Assembly: GCA_963663385.2 (NCBI GenBank)
Contig: CAXXXD010000002.1
Coordinates: 64,001-128,000, forward strand
Direction of reading: 5' to 3'
Length of the DNA: 64,000 nt
Origin: Oceanispirochaeta sp.
GTDB taxonomy: Bacteria > Spirochaetota > Spirochaetia > DSM-2461
The stretch's first letter is position 1; each line of letters starts with the position of its first letter. Below are positions 1 to 13,202 of the stretch, piece after piece. Position numbers and translations under genes: made by a program. The notes beneath the pieces were generated by a model that was not told where the DNA came from, did not search any database, and was given only the letters and a program-made list of their open reading frames with translations.

Positions 1-1839
1 TTTTCCCTGTCTCACAGGAATGTTCATGTTATCCTTGAAGATACCAGAGGGGGGCTCTGGATAGGATCCCTTGGGGGGCTGGATAAATTTAATCCCGAAA
101 CGGAAGACTTTGACCATATTCTGCTGGAAGGGTTTGGATATGATGAAACCAGCGAACCGATCATCTACTGCATGACCGAAGACCTTGACGGCACTTTCTG
201 GATAGGAACCTATAGTTCCGGAGTTCTTCACTGGTCCGAAGAAGACGGGGTTCTGGATACGTTTTCATATGATCCGGATAACCCCGGGTTGTCCAATAAT
301 CTGGTATTTGCCACTTCCCTCGACAGTCGGGGAGATCTCTGGGTCGGCACTAACAGGGGGCTTAACCGCTACAATCGGGAGAAAAACGAGTTTGAATTCT
401 TTTACCATGATCTGGATAAACCGGGAACCCTGAGCAGTAATTATATTACTGCCATTATGGAAGACTCTCAGGGTAATCTGTGGATCTGTACGGATGGGGG
501 AGGTTTGAACCGTTATAACAGAGAACAGGGCGATTTTTCCTTTTATACCAGAGAGGACGGTTTGATATCCAACCATTTACAGTCTATTCAGGAAGACAAA
601 CAGCATCGTTTATGGATCGGGACAATTAATGGATTAAGTATTCTGAATCCTGAAACCGATGAATTCCTGACGGTGGATTCAAGCGATGGTATTATGGCTC
701 CCAAAATGGATTTCGGAGCGGCCAGGGGAAAGGACGGTTCTCTCTATTTCGGATCAAGGGAGGGTATTCTGAGGTTCGAACCGACGATCCTCTATGATAA
801 TAATATACCACCCCCACTGTATTTCAACGAAGTCAAGGTTATGGATCAGTCTGTTCGCATTTCGGATTATATGGGGGAGGGGAAAGTTCTTGAGCTGCCC
901 TGGGACAAAAACTATCTCTCCTTTGAATTTGTCGCTTTGGATTTTACCTCTTCCGAGAGTAATCTCTATCGTTATAAAATGGAGGGATTGGATCAGGACT
1001 GGGTAAACAGTGCTAACAGAAACTTCGCCTCCTATGTAAACCTGAAACCGGGGCGCTATACTTTTATGGTTCAGGGATCCAATAATGACGGTGTCTGGAA
1101 TACGGACAGTCTGAAGCTCTCCATTTGGATAAAGGCACCGCCCTGGCAGCAGAAATGGTTTCTTCTCATTTATATTGCGTTGGGTATTCTCCTCTTTATT
1201 GTTGTATCAAATTTTCAGGCTAATTTTCTTCTCAAAAAGAAACTGCGGGATGCCGAGTCCAGCAGGAACAACCTTCAGGACCTGAATGACAGGCTGGAAG
1301 AGATGGCATGGAAGGATGCTCTCACCGGTCTGGCAAACCGCCGGTTCTTTGATCTCTCCCTTAACAATCTCTGGCATCTTGGGGTAAGGGAGAAGAAGAG
1401 GTTGTCCATTTTTATGATCGATGTAGATTTTTTTAAAGCCTATAATGACTTATACGGGCATCAGATGGGAGATGTCGCTCTTAGAAAGACAGCTGACATT
1501 ATACGGAGCGTTCTCAGACGGGAAACAGATGCTGTCTGCCGTTACGGCGGGGAGGAATTCTCAATTCTTTTGTTTGATATGCCGGATAAGGAAGCAAAGG
1601 CCATTTGTAAAAGCCTTCTTGAAAAAACGAGACAGATGCGTATTCCCCATGAAGCTTCTTCTGTCAGCTCTTACTTAACTATTTCCATCGGGTTAGCCAG
1701 CCTGATTCCGGATTTTGATATGGATGCGGAAGTTCTTGTCAGCAGGGCGGATAAAGCTTTATACCGTGCCAAGGGCAAGGGGAGGAACAGAATGGAATTC
1801 TATAACCCTGATAATAAACATGAGGTCCGGTATGAATAA
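1..1839 (+). CDS. Beta-propeller/Y_Y_Y sensor-linked diguanylate cyclase (5'-partial; frame open from base 1)
   Basis: Repeated D-x-x-G-x-LWIGT propeller blades, Y_Y_Y segment (YRYKMEGLDQDW...YVNLKPGRYTFMV), TM helix after PPWQQKW, GGDEF domain with DALTGLANRR, RETD I-site and RYGGEEF. Confidence 0.92.
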   Translation, partial: FSLSHRNVHVILEDTRGGLWIGSLGGLDKFNPETEDFDHILLEGFGYDETSEPIIYCMTEDLDGTFWIGTYSSGVLHWSEEDGVLDTFSYDPDNPGLSNNLVFATSLDSRGDLWVGTNRGLNRYNREKNEFEFFYHDLDKPGTLSSNYITAIMEDSQGNLWICTDGGGLNRYNREQGDFSFYTREDGLISNHLQSIQEDKQHRLWIGTINGLSILNPETDEFLTVDSSDGIMAPKMDFGAARGKDGSLYFGSREGILRFEPTILYDNNIPPPLYFNEVKVMDQSVRISDYMGEGKVLELPWDKNYLSFEFVALDFTSSESNLYRYKMEGLDQDWVNSANRNFASYVNLKPGRYTFMVQGSNNDGVWNTDSLKLSIWIKAPPWQQKWFLLIYIALGILLFIVVSNFQANFLLKKKLRDAESSRNNLQDLNDRLEEMAWKDALTGLANRRFFDLSLNNLWHLGVREKKRLSIFMIDVDFFKAYNDLYGHQMGDVALRKTADIIRSVLRRETDAVCRYGGEEFSILLFDMPDKEAKAICKSLLEKTRQMRIPHEASSVSSYLTISIGLASLIPDFDMDAEVLVSRADKALYRAKGKGRNRMEFYNPDNKHEVRYE

Positions 1840-4087
1840 AGATAATGTGGAACTGATTTGTAATATAGGTGAGCTGTCTGATCTTTTCAGAGAGAAAAGT
1901 GATATAAGGGGTTTCCTTCACAAGGTTGTGCGAACCGTCTCTCTTCATATGAAAGCGGACGTCTGTTCCATCTATCTGTACGATGAGTTTATTGACCGGC
2001 TTATTCTGGAGGCTACTGAAGGGTTGAATCCTGCTCTGATCGGGAAACTGATCCTGTCTATCGGCGAAGGACTGGTTGGTACTTCCCTGAAAGAACTCCG
2101 GCCCATTCTTGAAAAACAGGGCAGTGATAATCCTCATTTTATGCCGGTTCCCGGGAGTAATGAAGACCGGTATGAAGCTTTTCTGGCTGTTCCGATTGTT
2201 CAGGGGCTGTCCCGTATCGGTGTTCTGGTTCTGCAGCACTCAAGGCCGGGGTTTTTCAACCGGAATGATATGATGGCTTTAAAGGCCATTGCTTCCCAGC
2301 TGGCCACAACCCTGGAAAATGCCAAACTGCTAATGGGGGTAAATAAAAAGCCTGTCGAAGCAAAGGGGCGGATGGAACTGTCTGTTATACGGGGACGGCC
2401 TATTGTGGAAGGTGTCGGTATCGGTTCGGTGTATGTACTGGAAGAGCAGCATACGGCACGACCCTTTTACAGGGACGAGTGCACCCGCCTCGGGTTTGAT
2501 GATTTTCAGGCCGCATTGCAGCAGACCGCCGAGCAGCTTCAGGAGCTGCAGGCTGAAATGGAGGAGCGTCTCTCAGATGTGGCTTCCCTGATTTTCAGTA
2601 CCCATCTCCTGATGCTGCAGGATACCAGTTTTATCGGGTATATTGAGGATGAAATTGAAAAAGGAAAATCTCCCTGTCAGGCCGTAATAGAAAGAGTTGA
2701 GTATTTTGTGAAGCTTTTCTCACAGAGCGGGAATCCCCGTATTATGGAAAAAGTTCAGGATATCCGTGATCTGGGGCATAGAATTCTCCGGAATCTGGCC
2801 AGGGAAAATCAGGTGGCGGGAGACTATTCCGATCAGATCGTTATTGCCCGTGAACTTCTCCCTTCGGAACTTGTAAAAATAACAGCCCAGCATGTGGAAG
2901 GATTCGTTCTCTACAGCCAGGGGGCTTCCGCCCATATATCCATCCTGGCCAAATCGCTGGGTGTTCCCATGATGTTTACAGAGGACAAGAGTCTCTTTTC
3001 TCTGGAAACGGACACCCCCGTAATCCTCGACGGGATTCAGGGGAATCTGCTGATCAGTCCGGGTGAGGATACGGTAAAGGAATTCCTGAGTCTGAAAGAG
3101 GGGGCCTCCCGTCTGGAGGGCGAACTCGACTCGGTTAAAACCGAAACCCGTACCGCAGACGGGGAACGGGTTCATCTATATGCCACTATTAATATCCTCA
3201 GTGATATTTCCACCGCTCTGAAAGTTAAAGCCGAGGGAATCGGTTTATATAGAAGTGAATTCCCTTTTCTGATCCGGAACAGCTTTCCCAGTGAGGAAGA
3301 GCAGTACCTTGTCTATAAAAAGATCTTTGATCGAATGCCCTCCGAGATTATCACCCTGAGGACTCTGGATATAGGGGGGGACAAGATCCTGTCCTATATG
3401 CCGGATCAGGAAGAGGATAACCCTTTTCTGGGGCTGCGGGCGATTCGTTTTCTGCTGAAGAATAAAAAGATCTTTGTGAGCCAGTTAAAGGCCATGCTCC
3501 GGGCAGGACAGGGGCGTTCATTCAGGATAATGTTTCCTCTTATTTCATCGGTGGATGATTTTCTGGAATCCAAACGGATGGTGGAAAAAAGCCGTGAGTT
3601 TCTGATGAGGGACGGTTTCGAGTGCAAAACCATGCCTGAACTGGGGGTTATGGTGGAACTCCCCTCGGCTGTTGCCATGGCGGATGCTCTGGCCGAAGAA
3701 GCGGACTTTATTTCCATCGGTTCCAACGATCTGGTACAATACCTGCTGGGGGTGGACAGGACCAACGAAAAGGTTTCCGGTTTATACGAAGCCAGACACC
3801 CTGCGGTACTCCGTTCCATCAATTCTGTTGCAAAAGCGGCGGAACAGGCAAACTGTCCCTTAAGCCTGTGCGGTAATATGACCAGCGATAAGGGAATGCT
3901 TCACTTTCTGCTCGGAATCGGAATCAGGAATTTTTCTCTTACTCCGACTCTTATTCCGGAAGTTCAGGATTATATTAATACCCTTAGCGCCGAAGCTGCC
4001 GGAAAGAATGCCCGGCATGTGCTCTCTCTGAAAACCCTGAAATGTGTAGATGATTATATGAAAGGATTTCTCGATTCTCAGCCGTAA
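1832..4087 (+). CDS. ptsP: GAF-domain phosphoenolpyruvate-protein phosphotransferase (EI-Ntr-like)
   Basis: N-terminal GAF (ADVCSIYLYD...LEATEGLN), His motif GASAHISILAKSLG, GIGLYRSEF, EDNPFLGLRAIR, SIGSNDLVQY; ATG 1832 follows GAGG and overlaps the upstream stop. Confidence 0.9.
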   Translation: MNKDNVELICNIGELSDLFREKSDIRGFLHKVVRTVSLHMKADVCSIYLYDEFIDRLILEATEGLNPALIGKLILSIGEGLVGTSLKELRPILEKQGSDNPHFMPVPGSNEDRYEAFLAVPIVQGLSRIGVLVLQHSRPGFFNRNDMMALKAIASQLATTLENAKLLMGVNKKPVEAKGRMELSVIRGRPIVEGVGIGSVYVLEEQHTARPFYRDECTRLGFDDFQAALQQTAEQLQELQAEMEERLSDVASLIFSTHLLMLQDTSFIGYIEDEIEKGKSPCQAVIERVEYFVKLFSQSGNPRIMEKVQDIRDLGHRILRNLARENQVAGDYSDQIVIARELLPSELVKITAQHVEGFVLYSQGASAHISILAKSLGVPMMFTEDKSLFSLETDTPVILDGIQGNLLISPGEDTVKEFLSLKEGASRLEGELDSVKTETRTADGERVHLYATINILSDISTALKVKAEGIGLYRSEFPFLIRNSFPSEEEQYLVYKKIFDRMPSEIITLRTLDIGGDKILSYMPDQEEDNPFLGLRAIRFLLKNKKIFVSQLKAMLRAGQGRSFRIMFPLISSVDDFLESKRMVEKSREFLMRDGFECKTMPELGVMVELPSAVAMADALAEEADFISIGSNDLVQYLLGVDRTNEKVSGLYEARHPAVLRSINSVAKAAEQANCPLSLCGNMTSDKGMLHFLLGIGIRNFSLTPTLIPEVQDYINTLSAEAAGKNARHVLSLKTLKCVDDYMKGFLDSQP

Positions 4088-4485
4088 TGGCCCATAATTT
4101 CTTTAATTGTCTGATCAGCCAGATAGTCCCGGATATGGTGTTCCGTAACATCCCAGAAATGAGCCAGGATGCAGTCGTCGGTTCTGCCGCAAATGTGGTC
4201 ATCGTGGGTACAGGGCGCCAGAATAACCCCCTCCTCAACGGCTTCCAGAATATCCAGAACGGTAATATCTTCCACTGATTTGGCCAGGCGGAATCCCCCG
4301 GAAGCACCGCGTACGGATTCCGTAATCCCCGCTTTTTTCAGTTTGGTGAAAATCTGTTCCAGAAATATGGGTGACAGATCTTCGCTGTTGGATATTTTCT
4401 TTATGGAAATGGGTGTGTTGTCATCACTTAAAGCCATATTGACTATAGCTCTTAAAGCATAGCGTCCCTTAGTCGTTATTCTCAT
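4078..4485 (-). CDS. Rrf2-family (IscR-like) transcriptional regulator
   Basis: MRITTKGRYALRA start, SVRGASGGFRLA wing, C-x6-C-x5-C-x3-H cluster-ligand pattern; start trimmed to ATG 4485. Confidence 0.9.
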   Translation of the reverse strand: MRITTKGRYALRAIVNMALSDDNTPISIKKISNSEDLSPIFLEQIFTKLKKAGITESVRGASGGFRLAKSVEDITVLDILEAVEEGVILAPCTHDDHICGRTDDCILAHFWDVTEHHIRDYLADQTIKEIMGHYG

Positions 4486-4654
4486 GGTTTTAATAGTATA
4501 TATATTGATATGACTTATCAAGGCTTCATTCTCTTTGTCTGGACTAATTTTTCAGAAAGGCAAAAAAATACCAAAATTAATAGGACATTTATATATGATA
4601 TATCTTGTAAGGTATTAACATGCTCCTAAAGAGTTAATCATGCGGAGGTCAGAA

Positions 4655-6001
4655 ATGACAGGGAAAGAGTTAATCACTAAACAATTTCAGGGAGAATCAA
4701 CCGAAAGAGCTCCCTGGGTTCCTTATACGGGTGTACAGATAGCCAATCTGAAAGGATATACGGCTGAAGAGGTCTTAAAAGATGCGGACAAATTAACAGA
4801 ATGCCTGCTGGAGGCTCACAAACAGTACTCTCCCGATGGTATGCCCGTTGTTTTTGATCTGCAGATAGAGGCGGAAATTCTGGGATGTGATCTGCTTTGG
4901 GCTGAGGATTCTCCTCCCACGGTTAAAAGCCATCCTCTGGCGGATACAAAAGAGATCCCCCGAACTCTTCCCGCCAGAACAGACGGTCGTATCCCCCTGG
5001 TTCTGGATGTCATGAAAGCCATGAAGGAGAAAGTCGGCGGCACGACTGCCCTGTACGGTCTGGTTTGCGGTCCCTTTACACTGGCTTCCCATCTGAGAAG
5101 TACCAATATCTTTATGGATATGTACGATGACGAAGAGTATGTTAAAAAACTGATGGCCTACTCAACAGATATTGCCATGGCCGTGGCGGACTACTATATC
5201 GAAGCCGGTATGGATATTATTGGATCTGTGGATCCTCTTATCTCCCAGATTTCTCCGGATATGTTTGAACAGTTTATGGCCGTGGATTACAAGCGATTTT
5301 ATGATCACTGCCGGGATAAGGGAGTATTCAGCTCTTTCTTTGTTTGCGGAGATGCCACCAAGAATCTGGATGTTATGGCCCAGTCCGGTCCGGACTGCCT
5401 TTCCATTGATGAAAATATAGATATTGCGGAGGCAAAGAAAGTAACCGAAAAACATGGAATCCTTATTTCCGGAAATATGCAGCTTACTGTTACCATGCTG
5501 CTGGGAAATCAGAAGGATAATCAGAAAGCAGCTATCGAACTGATGGATAAGATGGGAAACAGGGGATTTATCCTGGCTCCCGGATGCGATATGCCCTTTG
5601 GAGTTCCCGTAGAGAATATTGTAGGTATCGGACAGGCTGTTCAGAATATCGAATCCACAAGGAAATTCCTGGAAAGCTATGAGAAAGAGGTCGTCGAAAT
5701 TGATGTGGAAATGCCCGATTATGCCAACCTGGATCATGTGCTGATAGAAGTGCTGACTATCGATTCCAAGACCTGTGCGGCCTGCGGCTATATGAAAGCT
5801 GCTGCAGACGACATGATTGGGATTTTCGGGGACAAGGTAGAGGTTGTGGAGCGATCCATTATGGAAGCGGAGAATATTGCCCGGATTGGTAAACTGGGTG
5901 TTGCCAACCTGCCCTCCATGGCAATCAACGGAGAGGTTAAGCATATATCCCTGATTCCTTCCCGGGCGGAGCTTGAAGCGGAGGTTCGGGAACTGGTTTG
6001 A
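4655..6001 (+). CDS. Uroporphyrinogen decarboxylase/MtaA-CmuA-family protein with C-terminal thioredoxin-like domain
   Basis: DLQIEAEILGC, GPFTLASHLR, GFILAPGCD motifs; C-terminal CAAC and LPSMAING; SD GGAGG before ATG 4655. Confidence 0.8.
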   Translation: MTGKELITKQFQGESTERAPWVPYTGVQIANLKGYTAEEVLKDADKLTECLLEAHKQYSPDGMPVVFDLQIEAEILGCDLLWAEDSPPTVKSHPLADTKEIPRTLPARTDGRIPLVLDVMKAMKEKVGGTTALYGLVCGPFTLASHLRSTNIFMDMYDDEEYVKKLMAYSTDIAMAVADYYIEAGMDIIGSVDPLISQISPDMFEQFMAVDYKRFYDHCRDKGVFSSFFVCGDATKNLDVMAQSGPDCLSIDENIDIAEAKKVTEKHGILISGNMQLTVTMLLGNQKDNQKAAIELMDKMGNRGFILAPGCDMPFGVPVENIVGIGQAVQNIESTRKFLESYEKEVVEIDVEMPDYANLDHVLIEVLTIDSKTCAACGYMKAAADDMIGIFGDKVEVVERSIMEAENIARIGKLGVANLPSMAINGEVKHISLIPSRAELEAEVRELV

Positions 6002-6005
6002 CCTC

Positions 6006-6107
6006 GCCCCCTCGACTTCGCTCGGGGATCTTCGGGGTATTCCTCCCTTCCTCGGGAGTATCCATTACTTGTGGGTAATCGAATGCTCCCAGAGGGAGAG
6101 GGGGAAT
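6006..6107 (+). repeat. Intergenic REP-like hairpin followed by a long imperfect inverted repeat
   Basis: CCCCCTCGACTTCGCTCGGGG hairpin, then 6039-6107 stem ATTCCTCCCTTCCTC-GGGAGTAT..ATTAC/GTAAT..ATGCTCCC-GAGGGAGAGGGGGAAT. Confidence 0.55.
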
Positions 6108-6128
6108 TGTATTAATAGGAGAATTATA

Positions 6129-7100
6129 ATGAGTGGAAAGATTGATATTGTGCTGCTCGCAGGATTTCTGGGGGCGGGAAAGACTACGGTGCTGAATGAG
6201 CTTATCCGCCAGTTTCCGGGTATTAAGCTGGGGATGCTGGTTAATGATTTCGGTGAAGTTCCTGTAGACGGTTCCCTTTTAAAGAGCGAGAATCCGGAAA
6301 TTCTGGAAGAGGGACATAAAATCTATGAAATAGGGAACGGTTCCATTTTCTGCTCCTGTCTGAAAGCGCCGTTTCTGTACGGGCTGCAGTATTTTGAAAA
6401 AGAGAAACCCGAACTCCTCTTCATCGAAGCTTCCGGGCTTTCCGATCCGTCCAGTATGGACAAGATTCTGAAGGAGCACGGGCTGGAGGGGGCTTTCCGG
6501 GTTAAAAGGGTTTTGACCCTGGTGGATCCTGTCCGCTATGTTCAGCTGGTACATGTTCTGGATGTCATAAGCCGGCAGATTATGGCGGCGGACAATCTTC
6601 TGATTAATAAAGCCGATCTGGTTACAGATGAGGAACTGAAAAAGGTCGAAGAGATGGTTCGGGAACTTAACCGGGAGGTGCCGATTCAGAAGGGTTCTTT
6701 CGGGCAGTTTGATTACTCTTTTCTCCGTGAAGAGGACAGGATGCACCGGATGGCGGATCGGGAGAGCTGCAATACCCCCGATACCAGACCGGCCAGCCTG
6801 TTTCTGGAAGGTTCTCTTCTGAATGAAAAGGTGCTGCTGGACTTTTTGAACTCCATAAAAGATGAAGTTTACCGCTTAAAGGGATTCTGGGAACTGGAGG
6901 GCGGGATGCGCTATGTTTCCGATACGGGACGGGGCTTCAGTATCACTCCTGCGGAGAAAAGCGGGATCAGGTCGGGTCTGACAGTGCTCTGTCCTCCCGC
7001 AAACGCGGAAACCGTTCAGGCGGCCTGGCAGAGGTTCCGGGAAGATAAATTCAGGATGGTCGGCGGAGGCGGTATAAGCGGGGGGCTCGGGCTGCGGTGA
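6129..7100 (+). CDS. CobW/COG0523-family P-loop GTPase (metallochaperone)
   Basis: GFLGAGKTT, VNDFGE, GSIFCSC, IEASGL, INKADL, C-terminal YRLKG; SD AGGAG before ATG 6129. Confidence 0.88.
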   Translation: MSGKIDIVLLAGFLGAGKTTVLNELIRQFPGIKLGMLVNDFGEVPVDGSLLKSENPEILEEGHKIYEIGNGSIFCSCLKAPFLYGLQYFEKEKPELLFIEASGLSDPSSMDKILKEHGLEGAFRVKRVLTLVDPVRYVQLVHVLDVISRQIMAADNLLINKADLVTDEELKKVEEMVRELNREVPIQKGSFGQFDYSFLREEDRMHRMADRESCNTPDTRPASLFLEGSLLNEKVLLDFLNSIKDEVYRLKGFWELEGGMRYVSDTGRGFSITPAEKSGIRSGLTVLCPPANAETVQAAWQRFREDKFRMVGGGGISGGLGLR

Positions 7101-7111
7101 GGGTATCTGCT

Positions 7112-7450
7112 CTAAAGGAGCTTTGACCCTAAATCCACATCTTTATCCGGGACTGCTAAAACGACATTATTATCAGAGTTATAAAAACCGGTTACCAGAC
7201 ATTCCGACTGCATGTTGGCTATCTGCTTATCAGGGAAATTGACAACGGCAATGATTGTTTTTCCCAGCAGGTCTTCTGGTGAGTACAGGTCTGTTATCTG
7301 ACTGCTGGTTTTTTTAATTCCTATGTCTCTGCCAAAATCAATCTGCAGCTTATAGGCCGGTTTTCTGGCTTCCCTGAAAACCTCGGCTTTGATGATCTTT
7401 CCTGCCCTTAATTCTACTTTTTCATAATCATCCCATGTGATTGTGTCCAT
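7112..7450 (-). CDS. csaA: tRNA-binding/export chaperone CsaA
   Basis: ITWDDYEKVELRAG, RKPAYKLQIDFG, SSQIT..Y, VVNFPDKQIAN.QSECLVTG. Confidence 0.88.
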   Translation of the reverse strand: MDTITWDDYEKVELRAGKIIKAEVFREARKPAYKLQIDFGRDIGIKKTSSQITDLYSPEDLLGKTIIAVVNFPDKQIANMQSECLVTGFYNSDNNVVLAVPDKDVDLGSKLL

Positions 7451-7716
7451 AGTTGCAACCTCTGTTTTGTTTCCCAAATATTGCTCAATTCCCATGTGGT
7501 GGAAGGGAATTTCTGCTTCCAAACGGTGTATTGCGGTGTGTCGAGTGAACTTTAAATATAAAGTTCTTTAGGATTTCAATCTGCTCTATCAGGTTTTTCA
7601 TTGTATCAAAATTTCTATTGACAATGTATTTAATAATGTAATATTCCTTAAATTTTAGAAGTACCTAAATCGAGATAGTGGGCAATATAAAAATAATGAT
7701 TTTATTATTCTACAAG

Positions 7717-8389
7717 TGAATGTGCTATACTTTGGAATACTCCATCAGGACAACCTGGAGGGTTGCTGATGGACCCCATTTCTGAATGTGCTATACTCCT
7801 TACTTCAATCCGAATTATTTCACCGGTGTTGCGGATGGACCCCATTTCTGAATGTGCTATACTGAGATATGGCAAGATACTACATATTCTGTTGTTGCGG
7901 ATGGACCCCATTTCTGAATGTGCTATACTCTGAATATAGTTCCATATCGATGGGTAATAGTTGCGGATGGACCCCATTTCTGAATGTGCTATACTAGGTT
8001 TCAATTCGAAAAGAACGTTAAGCCTGTTGCGGATGGACCCCATTTCTGAATGTGCTATACTAGTGTCACAGCTTCTACGTCTCAGGTTAAGGTTGCGGAT
8101 GGACCCCATTTCTGAATGTGCTATACTCAGCCAAAAGAAATGGTATAACCAATCAAGTTGCGGATGGACCCCATTTCTGAATGTGCTATACTTCTTTTTC
8201 ATGTGTTACCTCTTTAATTATAGTTGCGGATGGACCCCATTTCTGAATGTGCTATACTATCTTTGATAACCGGGATAACATATAGATTGTTGCGGATGGA
8301 CCCCATTTCTGAATGTGCTATACTTCGGCTGGATTAGTACCTATTAACGTTCTGTTGCGGATGGACCCCATTTCTGAATGTGCTATACT
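7717..8389 (+). CRISPR. Type II-C CRISPR array: 10 full 36-bp repeats plus one 15-bp remnant, 10 spacers of 29-30 bp
   Basis: Repeat GTTGCGGATGGACCCCATTTCTGAATGTGCTATACT at 7762 (one G>T change), 7828, 7894, 7960, 8026, 8092, 8157, 8223, 8289, 8354; remnant TGAATGTGCTATACT at 7717-7731; + orientation inferred from tracrRNA pairing and the TGnTATACT box. Confidence 0.98.
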
Positions 8390-8458
8390 AGTGATTGTGT
8401 AACTCCATAACCGGAAAGGCTTTGGAGTGCATAATTGCAAATAAAAAAGAGGTGGAAA

Positions 8459-8788
8459 TCAGAAAAGCAGGAACTGTGCATTTGTTTTTTTCTGCTTTTG
8501 GAACTCTTTTCCATAGAAAGAAACGATATTTTCATATTGCTTGTCTGTAATTGAAATAATATCAACCTTTCCTCCCTTAGGAAGAGCATCCTCCACCATT
8601 TCAACAATGGTTTTCAATGCATCTTTTCCTGATAACAATCTATAGTATACCGAATATTGACTCATATGGAAACCGTTGTCCAGCAAGAACTTACGAAATT
8701 CTGTTGCTTCTTTTCTCTGCTTCTGTTCAACCACTGGTAAATCAAATAATACTATTGCCCACATCATCCTGTACCCGTTCAAAAACAT
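8459..8788 (-). CDS. cas2: CRISPR-associated endonuclease Cas2
   Basis: YRMMWAIVLFDLPV, FRKFLLDNGFHMSQYSVY, ITDKQY; adjacent to array. Confidence 0.96.
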   Translation of the reverse strand: MFLNGYRMMWAIVLFDLPVVEQKQRKEATEFRKFLLDNGFHMSQYSVYYRLLSGKDALKTIVEMVEDALPKGGKVDIISITDKQYENIVSFYGKEFQKQKKTNAQFLLF

Positions 8789-9705
8789 AATTCCACCAAC
8801 TCGTTTAACTCCCCGTCTCCCGGAAAGGGAGGAATAATCAATTCGTTGCTTTTTTCTTTAAAACTCCTGACAACGGATAGGCATAAATCTTCCAATGCTT
8901 TAATCAGGGGCGTTTTCCCTTTCAGGGAATCCAGATCCAGCCAGCAGAGCTGTATAATTTTCTTTTTGTTTGCCGGTATAAGGCTGAAATCGTCGTATTT
9001 AGAAATTTCCACAGCAGCAATATCAAACAGTGGTCTGTATATCTCCATAAGATCATCTACCAGACACATATTGTTTGACCTGTTTATATGATGGATACCC
9101 AGAGCAGGTTGTAAACCGCAGGAACAGACCGCACGTGCTGTCATTCCTCTCAGTACTCCATATCCGTAATTTAATAAGGAATTAATCCCCGGCTCGTTTA
9201 TATCCCTTTTGAAGGTTCCTTCAAACAGGCTTTTCCAATACACCCGAGCGGCATAGGCTTCGTTATTTTCCTTATCACCGGATTTAACCTGTTCTGCAAT
9301 ATGGAGTAAGGTTTTGTAATCATCTTTCTTATAGAAGCTTAGTATCGCGGCCTGATTCCGGATTTTTGTCTGAACGATTATTTTCCACATCTGCTTTTTT
9401 AAAGGCAGAGACGCATCAATTTGATCCAGTAATCTTCCGGTATATTCAAAGTGGGAGCTGTAAGGCAGGAGAAATGATGCGGGATTGTAGTTTTTGCCGC
9501 ATAGTATGGCCATGCCGCCCCGCTCATTTATACGTGTCAGTATCTCCTTTGAGAAACTAACACCTCTGGCTGTAACAAGAAGAACGGCAATATCGTCCAG
9601 CGGCACTTCGGCCAGTTTTTCCCTGGCTTTGGATATCTTTAAAAATCCTCTGTAAGCGGATAAATATGTCCCTTCTTCCGAGATTTCAACGACTTGTCTG
9701 AGCAT
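8779..9705 (-). CDS. cas1: Type II CRISPR-associated endonuclease Cas1
   Basis: VPLDDI, KIRNQ, SGD..N.EA.AARVYW, INSLLNYGY, LGIHH, LVDDLMEIYRP. Confidence 0.96.
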   Translation of the reverse strand: MLRQVVEISEEGTYLSAYRGFLKISKAREKLAEVPLDDIAVLLVTARGVSFSKEILTRINERGGMAILCGKNYNPASFLLPYSSHFEYTGRLLDQIDASLPLKKQMWKIIVQTKIRNQAAILSFYKKDDYKTLLHIAEQVKSGDKENNEAYAARVYWKSLFEGTFKRDINEPGINSLLNYGYGVLRGMTARAVCSCGLQPALGIHHINRSNNMCLVDDLMEIYRPLFDIAAVEISKYDDFSLIPANKKKIIQLCWLDLDSLKGKTPLIKALEDLCLSVVRSFKEKSNELIIPPFPGDGELNELVELCF

Positions 9706-9712
9706 AGTCTAC

Positions 9713-12700
9713 TCATGTCCTTTCCCTCCCGTCTGCTGTGATATGAACTTTCGAAACCAGATAAGTTTGAAAAACTTGGTTTATCGAATTCCAATTTTGA
9801 CCTTTCTGTGGCTTCCAAATATCATCTTTTATAATAATATTCGTATGTTCATTCCAATCTTTCAAGTTTGTTGCGTTAAAAACAGTTGAAAAATCAATTC
9901 TATTTGTTGTTGCAGCATATCCTTTGATTATAGAGTAATGTGTTTTATTTTCTTCATCGATAATTTTTACAATATCTTCTTTATATAAAGACATTATTTT
10001 CTTTGCTGCCGGATGTGGGCAAGGTGATTTGAATTTCTCATCCTGTGCTTGAACACGGTTTACAAAATACCCTTTATATTCTGTTTTTTTCTTATTCTTA
10101 TGCGGAGGAATGGCCCAGATATCTACATACAGATAATCATTAGGTAAATAGGCTTTATTCTTGTTCACAGAATTAATTCGTACAGCGTTTTCCGTATTAT
10201 CCGGCATTATTCGTACTCGGCGAATTTTGTGTTTTTCTCCAAACAGCTGTAAAGCTTCCTGCAGCATTTTGGCATTCAGTTCAGATACTTGTATTTCGTT
10301 ATAAATTTTCAACTTGATCTCTTCGTCCCAGATTCTGGCAACCTCTGTTGCTTTCAGATCTTTTAAAGCCTTACGTGTAACATAAGTCGGAACCAGACAG
10401 ATTGGACCTTCCGCATCATTATCGGAATGCCATTTTTCAGCCATTATTTTTCTGGCTTTATTTATTCCTAGTTCCCGGACATAATCCTTGAACTCTCTCT
10501 TAAGGGAACGGCTTTCAATCTGATTAATATCATCAATAGTTTTGAATTTATCGAATCCTCTTCTTGTCTGTTTTAACTTCATACCAAGGGCTGTCTCATT
10601 AAAAAGCTTACCCTGTCTACCATGATCCAGCTTATGTGAGACGATGATCTTTTTTACCTGTTCAGTTACATCCCTCACCAGAAAGGGACTTGCAGGTACG
10701 ATTATATCTTCCGGTCTTTGTAGAATTGCCTCATTGGCAAGTCGTTTAATCGTACTCCTGTCTGTTAACGCAATTACAAGGGCATCAATACTGTGATGCC
10801 TATGATCCGTTCTGTTTTTGTGCCAGTTGCTGCGATGATTACTTAATATCGTGTTATATCCCCAGCGAGCCCGCAGCATGGCAGTCTGGCCGCCTTTTAT
10901 TGTCCAGATCTTGTTATAAATACAAATGGCAGAAAGGTATTCTTTTGATTTTCTTGACAGATAGGCATTATCTGTAAGCTGCCGGTCCATAAATCCGGCT
11001 TTTTCTTCCCACTCATGTAAAGCTCCTTTCAAAAAGAATTTGCTTTTGTTATTGGGTAGATGGGAGGAGCGCTCTACTATTTTATCGTAGTTAAAATCAT
11101 CGTGACAGGCTGAAAAAGCTTCATCTGGTGTACGATTTCCCTTAAAAGCATTGCATCGTTTATGGGACACCGTCAGATTATTCATACTGTTCATCAGAGT
11201 CCTTGAGTAGGGTAGTATATGTTCGATTTCAACATCCGGACTGAACAGTTGAGAAGCACTTATAGGTTTGCCGCAGTAAACACATCTGCGAGTAACTCCC
11301 TCAGGGGCCAGTTCTTCCCAGAGTTTGTATTTCTTTATATCCCAGGAACTGGGATGCCCTATTCCTAATGATTTCAGTTGATTATAGATTCGATCATTAT
11401 CAAGTTTATTCTTTTTCTGCCTGTTGAAAGCATCCATTTTATTGTCCCGGCTCATTTTTAATTCCCTGGACAATTCAAGCACTATTTCATCCGGGTTTCC
11501 AAAACGTTCAATCAGGCAATTTACCAGCTTCCGAAGCTGATTAAGGGCTATATGAACCGTTGGATTTCCAATTTTTCCATAGAGAATTTCGGGATCTCTA
11601 CTAAGGGATTCCGGTTTCCCGCCAATAGTACTGCCTTTCAGAATCTCACCATAATAGGGAAGTCGTTTCTTCAACTCTTCTTTGTTTCTGAAATCACTGT
11701 GATGAAGCCCCATCATTTTAACTGCTTCATGATAAGGCAGGCCTTTTTTCTCCATAATGAGGGAGCATTCATTCATAAATTCTTTTGATAAATTTGTTGT
11801 TCCGGAAGAGAATGTCTGGTTCAAAATTTCTTCAACCATATCTGAATCAAGATTGTACTCACTAAGAAAGTTTTTAATCGGTTCATCAGAATTACTTTCA
11901 ATGAGGAGCTCGATTAACTCATCCTGTTTTTCAAGTGCAATATCATCCCAGTATTTACCCATCACTTTTCGCATTGAAAAGGCGGTTGAGTTACCGTTTA
12001 GTTTTTCATCTGCTCTTTTTTCAAGGTTGAAACGGTTATCTACTTTCAGTAAAGACCGAATTTTATTAAAGGCAACTGTTTTGGCCTTATCAAGAGCTTG
12101 AATAAGGATCCTTCTCTGTCCATTAGTTAACCTGGTTTTGCTGCCATCACTATTTATCAGTTCAAGGTTATTCACTTCCTGAAGTATTCTGAATCGATGA
12201 CTGACAGGAAGGGCTTTATGGGCTCTCTCCTTATCAATATAAAACTGACACTTTCCTCTTTCCTGTGGTTTTAATGGTCTTTGAAAGAATATAATATCAT
12301 AGAGCAGATCCCAATCCAGTTGAGGATAGGAAGGTTCCTGAATATTCCGCAGAGAAAGGAATTCCTCTTCATATAATTTACGATCAGGATACTGATTTGA
12401 TATTTCAGGGCGGAATCGTATCCCTTTGCACTTCCCATCAACTCCCAGACTGTGAAACTCTTCTCTTTTCTTATATAAAAACTCGCCAAATGTTCTAGCA
12501 TCTGATTCATCAAGAGCATTCTGGAGATTCGATATCTTCAGGTAGTTCCCTTTGGTTTCAGCATCACCAGACTTTTCTTCTTTCCGGTTGCTTTTGAAAC
12601 CTCTTCTTTTGGCCAAATGAGCAATTGCACGGCATAATTCCTGACCATTCAATACTCTGTCCAGACCCTCTTTCCTGACTAAATAGGGATCTATACGTTT

Positions 12701-12991
12701 TATCTGTGCAGATTCATCTTGATCAATTATTCCAGAGCTAATAAAGAAACCATATACTTTTCTTATTTGTCGGTTTCTTCTGTCTCTTCTCTTTCGCATC
12801 TGACGGGCATTTCGTCTTTGAACGGCTAAGGAATCTCCGACACGTCCCTCTGCAGCCGGTTCTCTTCCATCAGAAAAAATTCTGACTCCCATATCCAATA
12901 TTTCAAGAGGTATACTGTCATCGGTTATTTTTAGAGCACACCATCCGATTGAATTCGTTCCAAGATCCAAGCCCAAGCGCCATTTATCCAT
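9713..12991 (-). CDS. cas9: Type II-C Cas9 (~1092 aa; alternative GTG start at 12997)
   Basis: RuvC-I LGLDLGTNSIGW, Arg-rich bridge helix, RRGFKSNRK, RuvC-II IVLELSRE, HNH CVYCG..EIEHILPYSR..N..KGN, RuvC-III HRHHSIDALVIA; no csn2 or cas4 in the locus. Confidence 0.97.
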   Translation of the reverse strand: MDKWRLGLDLGTNSIGWCALKITDDSIPLEILDMGVRIFSDGREPAAEGRVGDSLAVQRRNARQMRKRRDRRNRQIRKVYGFFISSGIIDQDESAQIKRIDPYLVRKEGLDRVLNGQELCRAIAHLAKRRGFKSNRKEEKSGDAETKGNYLKISNLQNALDESDARTFGEFLYKKREEFHSLGVDGKCKGIRFRPEISNQYPDRKLYEEEFLSLRNIQEPSYPQLDWDLLYDIIFFQRPLKPQERGKCQFYIDKERAHKALPVSHRFRILQEVNNLELINSDGSKTRLTNGQRRILIQALDKAKTVAFNKIRSLLKVDNRFNLEKRADEKLNGNSTAFSMRKVMGKYWDDIALEKQDELIELLIESNSDEPIKNFLSEYNLDSDMVEEILNQTFSSGTTNLSKEFMNECSLIMEKKGLPYHEAVKMMGLHHSDFRNKEELKKRLPYYGEILKGSTIGGKPESLSRDPEILYGKIGNPTVHIALNQLRKLVNCLIERFGNPDEIVLELSRELKMSRDNKMDAFNRQKKNKLDNDRIYNQLKSLGIGHPSSWDIKKYKLWEELAPEGVTRRCVYCGKPISASQLFSPDVEIEHILPYSRTLMNSMNNLTVSHKRCNAFKGNRTPDEAFSACHDDFNYDKIVERSSHLPNNKSKFFLKGALHEWEEKAGFMDRQLTDNAYLSRKSKEYLSAICIYNKIWTIKGGQTAMLRARWGYNTILSNHRSNWHKNRTDHRHHSIDALVIALTDRSTIKRLANEAILQRPEDIIVPASPFLVRDVTEQVKKIIVSHKLDHGRQGKLFNETALGMKLKQTRRGFDKFKTIDDINQIESRSLKREFKDYVRELGINKARKIMAEKWHSDNDAEGPICLVPTYVTRKALKDLKATEVARIWDEEIKLKIYNEIQVSELNAKMLQEALQLFGEKHKIRRVRIMPDNTENAVRINSVNKNKAYLPNDYLYVDIWAIPPHKNKKKTEYKGYFVNRVQAQDEKFKSPCPHPAAKKIMSLYKEDIVKIIDEENKTHYSIIKGYAATTNRIDFSTVFNATNLKDWNEHTNIIIKDDIWKPQKGQNWNSINQVFQTYLVSKVHITADGRERT

Positions 12992-13025
12992 ACTCACCTC
13001 TTGTTTTTATAGTAATCAGTGAGTT

Positions 13026-13054
13026 ATTTTAAACCTGTTTTAATTGACAATCAA
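13026..13054 (-). promoter_or_regulatory. Putative sigma70 promoter of the cas operon
   Basis: Minus strand TTGATT-N17-TAAAAT upstream of the cas9 SD. Confidence 0.6.
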
Positions 13055-13072
13055 ATAGTAAACGAATAAGAT
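13044..13072 (+). promoter_or_regulatory. Putative sigma70 promoter of tracrRNA
   Basis: TTGACA-N17-TAAGAT; predicted +1 near A13079, the start of the anti-repeat. Confidence 0.75.
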
Positions 13073-13078
13073 TAAATC

Positions 13079-13188
13079 AGCACATTTGGAAATGCGGTTC
13101 ATCCGCTAACAAGGCGAACCCGTTAGGGCACCGCCACAAAATGCACAGTTAACTGTGGAAAAGGCCTCCTGCGGGAGGTCTTTTTTTT
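13079..13188 (+). ncRNA. tracrRNA
   Basis: Anti-repeat AGCACATTTGGAAATGCGGTTCATCCGCTAAC (13079-13110) complementary to the repeat with 3 G-U pairs, 1 mismatch and 1 bulge; then AAGGCG..CGCC nexus-like stem, CACAG-TTAA-CTGTG hairpin, terminator. Confidence 0.92.
13159..13188. terminator. Intrinsic terminator, probably bidirectional (tracrRNA and convergent OMP gene)
   Basis: AAAA-GGCCTCC-TGCG-GGAGGTC-T8. Confidence 0.85.
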
Positions 13189-13202
13189 ATTAAAAGGATT
13201 AC

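Follow-up and report, generated by a model that had tools for sequence, protein, structure and literature searches.

The window, the whole stretch of 64,000 nucleotides that was analysed, carries a complete, ordinary type II-C CRISPR-Cas9 system, probably that of a spirochaete. Judging from its genes, its array and one matched phage, we put at roughly 85% the probability that this intact system is likely functional and likely horizontally acquired, with a predicted role in defence against phages like the one matched by the spacer at 8062-8091. RNA-guided, PAM-dependent DNA cleavage by its Cas9 is the likely activity predicted for the locus. With thousands of comparable loci already recorded, the system itself is unsurprising. 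All of its parts can be read, however, and its natural phage target supplies a PAM lead, so that a PAM and activity screen could be set up with little guesswork; the 1,092-residue Cas9 has the status of an untested candidate editing enzyme. The features of the locus are as follows, in window coordinates.

7717-7731, (+) strand: repeat remnant at the oldest end of the array, the 15-nt 3' end of a repeat with its extended -10 motif preserved
7732-7761, (+) strand: oldest spacer; a hairpin between it and the next, mutated repeat is predicted
7762-8389, (+) strand: ten 36-nt repeats and nine further spacers, with a -35/extended -10 promoter-like match in each repeat
8062-8091, (+) strand: spacer with a phage match (contig L126 of IMG/VR, 29 of 30 nt; target 3' flank ATATACAA)
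8390-8458, no strand: leader-side region from the last repeat to cas2; presumed acquisition end, oriented by the II-C rule (accessible text of PMC12080349)
8459-8788, (-) strand: cas2 (TIGR01573, PF09827)
8779-9705, (-) strand: cas1, type II (TIGR03639, E 1.1e-68, 231.6 bits against a cut-off of 120)
9713-12991, (-) strand: cas9, 1092 aa, open frame (TIGR01865, E 1.9e-166, 556 bits against a cut-off of 100)
13054-13026, (-) strand: divergent cas9 promoter-like site, from a promoter-motif scan
13044-13072, (+) strand: tracrRNA promoter-like site, TTGACA-17-TAAGAT, overlapping the divergent cas9 promoter-like site
13078-13190, (+) strand: tracrRNA, with anti-repeat, nexus, stem, small extra hairpin and a terminator hairpin with a U tract

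Cas genes, array and tracrRNA

The genes cas9, cas1 and cas2 lie contiguously on the (-) strand, with the array directly beyond cas2 and no space for an extra gene. By gene content and family models, neither csn2 (II-A) nor cas4 (II-B) is present in the locus, which places it in type II-C. The remaining features of the class are likewise present: family models and alignment reveal a split RuvC domain with an inserted HNH domain in cas9, cas1 and cas2 are the only accompanying cas genes, the tracrRNA is complementary to the repeat and, as a sequence pattern only, promoters lie inside the repeats with the oldest repeat first in the transcript. Cas9 does not pass the Cas9d and IscB models (NF049971, 106.9 bits against 375; NF040563, 19.7 against 175), and a single-protein locus scan found nothing. 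None of the three genes contains a stop or a frameshift. Residues D9, E506, H733 and D736, together with E590, H591, N605 and N614, are invariant in all 14 aligned homologues; from general knowledge of Cas9 proteins, we take the former four to be the RuvC residues and the latter four those of HNH. The initial annotation had described a compact Cas9 of about 1092 aa with intact catalytic motifs, accompanied by cas1, cas2, a 10-spacer array and a tracrRNA in a type II-C system. Each of these elements was found: the protein is 1092 aa long with no stop and all RuvC and HNH catalytic residues, the cas genes pass curated cut-offs, and family models and gene content bear out the class. Its further description of the system as "probably active" gained support, as far as sequence can speak to it.

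Solved structures of Cas9 are distant. Nme1Cas9, GeoCas9 and ThermoCas9, which share the domain order and are the best matches both by sequence (E 1e-62 to 1e-50) and by fold, are only about 20% identical by Foldseek alignment, with nothing closer by fold among solved structures. The best sequence match (E 1.2e-62) covers residues 3-757. Sequence matches stop at about residue 757, so that no solved structure matches the WED and PAM-interacting parts at E 0.001. The AlphaFold model of Cas9 was not used to interpret domain packing or PAM contacts, given its pTM of 0.33 and TM-scores of about 0.17. Around residues 800-860, in the WED region, lies a helical stretch that is longer in the spirochaete group and resembles the motif right after it; identity over region 791-945 is 44-54% in the four nearest relatives against 11-20% in proteobacterial ones.

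The array holds 10 spacers of 29-30 nt and is degenerate at one end only. Nine 36-nt repeats (7828 to 8354) are exact, and that at 7762 carries a single G>T change at position 6; elsewhere in the 5.3-Mb genome, the only repeat-like site with up to 12 mismatches is the anti-repeat at 13074. A sigma-70 promoter-like match with a TG-extended -10 is found on the (+) strand in all 10 repeats, and the region contains 32 promoter-like sites against 16 in shuffles. The accessible text of PMC12080349 describes, for II-C systems, a promoter in each repeat, addition of spacers at the last repeat and a degenerate end upstream; the degenerate end of this array lies upstream in the (+) direction, matching that description. 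On the leader side, the segment 8390-8510 has a strong (+) strand fold (z -3.9), and an inverted repeat directly behind the last repeat also occurs in several treponemal and family relatives. As to arrays elsewhere, those of loci L074 and L078 are inverted relative to cas9, unlike those of all other related loci, while the old end of the L010 array is rearranged and the L011 array contains duplicated spacer blocks.

The tracrRNA gene, about 110-115 nt long, lies upstream of cas9 with its own promoter-like site and terminator. Its region folds at -41.9 kcal/mol (z -3.86; none of 200 shuffles as good), and 32 nt of the repeat pair with the anti-repeat in a duplex of -46.2 kcal/mol. Most related loci with an array share this layout, their anti-repeats tracking their own changing repeat, and a TTGAC motif occupies the corresponding promoter place in most related loci. 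In 13 hand-picked tracrRNAs, compensatory change is seen in 13 of the 14 predicted pairs. Rfam has no family for this RNA, its only two matches having E values of 0.8-1. The sgRNA proposed at the outset, a fusion of the 5' part of the repeat to the anti-repeat, holds insofar as those 14 nt do form a duplex with the anti-repeat that includes one bulge and G-U pairs; the accessible parts of the Sdo and EHCas9 reports, however, give published guides that keep 18 nt of the repeat, not 14 (PMC7606464, PMC10281378).

Taken together, these parts suggest how the system may work. Given the promoter in each repeat, guides would be transcribed in the (+) direction, the cas genes running the other way. 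The tracrRNA, expressed upstream of cas9 from a promoter of its own, would pair with the repeat part of each guide. Cas9 would then cut DNA matching the spacer where a 3' PAM, most likely of the NNRNAY kind, is present, and Cas1-Cas2 would insert 29-30-nt spacers at the cas2-proximal end.

A phage target and the PAM

The spacer at 8062-8091 matches contig L126 over 29 of 30 nt, with the mismatch distant from the PAM end; assuming 1e11 bases, about 8e-6 such matches are expected by chance. L126 (positions 1-12613) is a 12.6-kb phage fragment carrying terminase, portal, protease, decoration and capsid genes. Of its 14 proteins, 7 match named phage families (head/packaging or nuclease), one matches an unnamed family and 6 match nothing. 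Searched for in 38 genomes, the phage portal had a single relative, at 31%, and the host had none.

The same genome encodes a type I-C system (G000:C1:331000-344938; L151 and beyond) with 70 spacers and open frames for cas3 (765 codons), cas5c, cas8c, cas7 and cas1c. By eye, a 337-codon frame upstream of its cas3 looks like an HTH-WYL regulator. Ten of the 70 type I-C spacers match L126 with 0-5 mismatches, mostly behind TTC, while the next-best spacer has 12 mismatches, as does the best of a reversed control. These ten matches imply that this phage or a near relative infects the host, and so validate the match of the Cas9 spacer independently. The presumptive host of L126 can be assigned, via 11 spacer matches from two systems, as this organism or a close relative. 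One host would have aimed two systems, of types I-C and II-C, at the same phage, with spacers of 33-37 and 29-30 nt, respectively.

This was the only credible target, for one spacer of 10, in the spacer search for a PAM. For 8 of the 10 spacers, all except 7732-7761 and 8193-8222, exact cores of 20-21 nt were scanned in IMG/VR; six had no match and two had one match each. A second contig, L122, was rejected as a protospacer with 8 mismatches in 29. With the array as blastn query, 50,697 phage and 72,556 plasmid records yielded no match better than E 8-9. In array searches of 38 and 401 genomes, an AT-rich intergenic match with 5 mismatches (G005) was rejected as a protospacer, and the matches were otherwise to other arrays. 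No spacer matched the host genome with fewer than 7 mismatches, and no protospacers were seen in contigs of other sequencing runs, which break in the array.

The 3' flank of the target starts with ATATAC, which fits NNRNAY, the PAM measured for DfCas9 according to the accessible text of PMC7708072. The repeat start behind the array spacers does not fit NNRNAY, as self-protection requires. From this one site, a 3' PAM of the NNRNAY kind appears most likely; as NNRNAY occurs at 6.7% of positions in L126, and as the motif was chosen after the fact, it should be read as a lead rather than a result.

Origin of the block and state of the array

The block has a GC content of 39.0%, compared with 46.5 +/- 3.5% for the genome and 0.48 and 0.50 for its flanks, which puts it in the lowest 3.2% of 1856 genome windows; the GC3 of cas9 is 0.34 against 0.49-0.60 in four flanking genes. 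At E 1e-50, no Cas9 match was found in any of 10 same-genus genomes, 9 of which are at least 90% complete. In 7 of these 10, matches to the two flanks lie no more than about 2 kb apart. In five sites read in detail, the flanks are 25 bp apart in one (G003), and the other four have a second cobW-like gene between them. The low GC, the absence from all 10 relatives and the empty site together make horizontal gain probable, in agreement with the initial annotation, which had read the AT-rich block as horizontally acquired. It is improbable that the system is instead ancestral in the genus and was lost from the other species. Such a history would fit the nearest named Cas9 relatives, which are spirochaetal, and the related Cas9 proteins found in 6 of 37 family genomes; yet all six belong to one other genus, share only 36-49% identity with this Cas9 and, for the two included in the tree, branch apart from it. 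The low GC of 0.39, the contrast in GC3 between cas9 and its flanks, and a site that in five genomes is empty or occupied by a second cobW-like gene, also speak against loss, so that gain at this site is the simpler reading. No donor was identified in the tree of 30 sequences, one of which (L037, 15% identity) is in the wrong reading frame and is to be disregarded.

Adjoining the array is a csaA-like tRNA-binding/chaperone gene (7112-7522, (-) strand, 41.7% GC); none of the same-genus loci that were read shows it here, and it may therefore be part of what was gained. Contigs from two samples, each of a separate study, also carry the cas genes with the tracrRNA, differing at 0 positions in one and 1 in the other; one of these samples may be where the window itself came from. 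A T>C change at 9978, in runs X3 and X6, reads as E1005G in the C-terminal domain, and three aligned homologues have G there. In run X3, a 44,903-base contig of the same sample carries another cas9-cas1 locus, which is diverged from the one described here and collinear with it.

The array is short, its 10 spacers comparing with 70 in that of type I-C, and this could reflect recent arrival or slow acquisition. This difference, with the open type I-C cas3, cas5, cas8c, cas7 and cas1 frames, would also suit a locus that is intact in sequence but silent or fading, its array a frozen record while type I-C defends the host, as would the fact that no new spacers were seen in other sequencing runs, whose contigs break inside the array. 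We regard this as very unlikely, given three genes free of stops and frameshifts, nine identical repeats and cas genes retained with 0-1 differences in samples of two studies. Furthermore, a spacer against a phage also recorded by the type I-C array of the host suggests acquisition in this lineage, and a likely functional system remains our preferred reading.

The oldest unit raises a separate question. The spacer at 7732-7761 and the mutated repeat that follows form a predicted hairpin of -19.1 kcal/mol, the strongest of the 10 units (7 of 200 shuffles as good). The G>T change is the one mutation among the repeats of the array; it contributes an extra pair and comes joint 4th among 108 possible changes, and predicted tracrRNA binding is weakened to -22.6 kcal/mol, compared with -29.2 to -32.0 in the other units. 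A selected device that shuts off an unwanted guide through base pairing to its own repeat, comparable to the leader in type II-A, could account for these three observations, but we consider it doubtful: 97 of 3000 spacer shuffles fold as well and, in the accessible text of PMC12080349, 60% of II-C terminal repeats are mutated anyway, with no class-wide hairpin of the upstream repeat found. A clade-wide terminal hairpin was rejected, as the terminal unit ranks first in only 2 of 38 arrays (2.3 expected; mean quantile 0.53), these being the window and 37 of 93 related loci with a 36-nt array, at least 4 repeats, the usual orientation and an upstream flank, of which a few ends may be mis-called. 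No regulatory target of the oldest spacer was found, its last 13 nt occurring in the array only. The hairpin is best treated as a single-locus curiosity, being either an instance of the known first-guide silencing in II-C or chance.

Relation to characterised Cas9 proteins

Among 7998 candidates scored, 3879 were Cas9 homologues, of which the best, 58-51% identical, are unnamed or come from spirochaete MAGs. The initial annotation had left novelty to a search; it turns out to be modest, the closest match being an uncharacterised orthologue at 58% but the family large and known. In the tree, Cas9 groups with P0002 and P0003 (support 1.0), then with P0006 and L033. It lies among spirochaete Cas9s, whose neighbours are alphaproteobacterial; over the C-terminal 147 aa, identity is 56% to the nearest homologue and 37% to L033. 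Neither a characterised spirochaete II-C Cas9 nor a characterised close relative of this protein was found in the open literature; a closer characterised enzyme may be recorded in subscription papers, patents or supplements. The main texts of PMC10278012 and PMC8482600 do not mention spirochaetes, and motif searches in the accessible Gasiunas supplements found nothing. The accessible part of the Gasiunas catalogue lists two Treponema enzymes, which are 1395-aa clade III proteins (PMC7606464).

Within clade IX, the accessible part of Gasiunas et al. 2020 lists Sdo (Sulfitobacter donghicola, 1070 aa, PAM NRRNTT), Ghh1 (1094 aa, N-M-R-N-A-Y) and Ghc1 (PMC7606464, supplementary file 7). All three resemble the present system in size, in a 36-nt repeat with the same 5' start and in a tracrRNA whose shared nexus motif leads into a short stem and then a terminator hairpin. 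The flank of the phage target fits the Ghh1 PAM at positions 3, 5 and 6, but not at position 2, and does not fit that of Sdo. Judged by eye from repeat and tracrRNA likeness and from the alphaproteobacterial neighbours, these similarities would point towards clade IX, as leads only. We take DfCas9, from Defluviimonas sp. 20V17, to be a member of that clade. In the accessible text of PMC7708072, it is likewise a II-C enzyme (1079 aa), with its tracrRNA upstream of the cas genes and a PAM that fits ATATAC, and gave no editing in human cells. As an enzyme of similar size and fitting PAM is inactive there, the delivery value of the present Cas9 is unproven. There is a slim chance that it is the first tractable compact Cas9 from an uncharacterised, structurally unsolved spirochaete sub-branch, with its own A-rich PAM, a 115-nt tracrRNA and human-cell editing, and with its oldest guide turned off by a hairpin, which is not reported as a II-C strategy. 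EHCas9, a metagenomic clade IX enzyme, differs in that its PAM needs G at positions 2 and 3, where the flank here has T and A; in the accessible text of PMC10281378, it shares with this locus a 36-nt repeat, a 29-nt spacer and a tracrRNA of about 100 nt whose gene lies upstream of cas9 and has a promoter and a terminator of its own.
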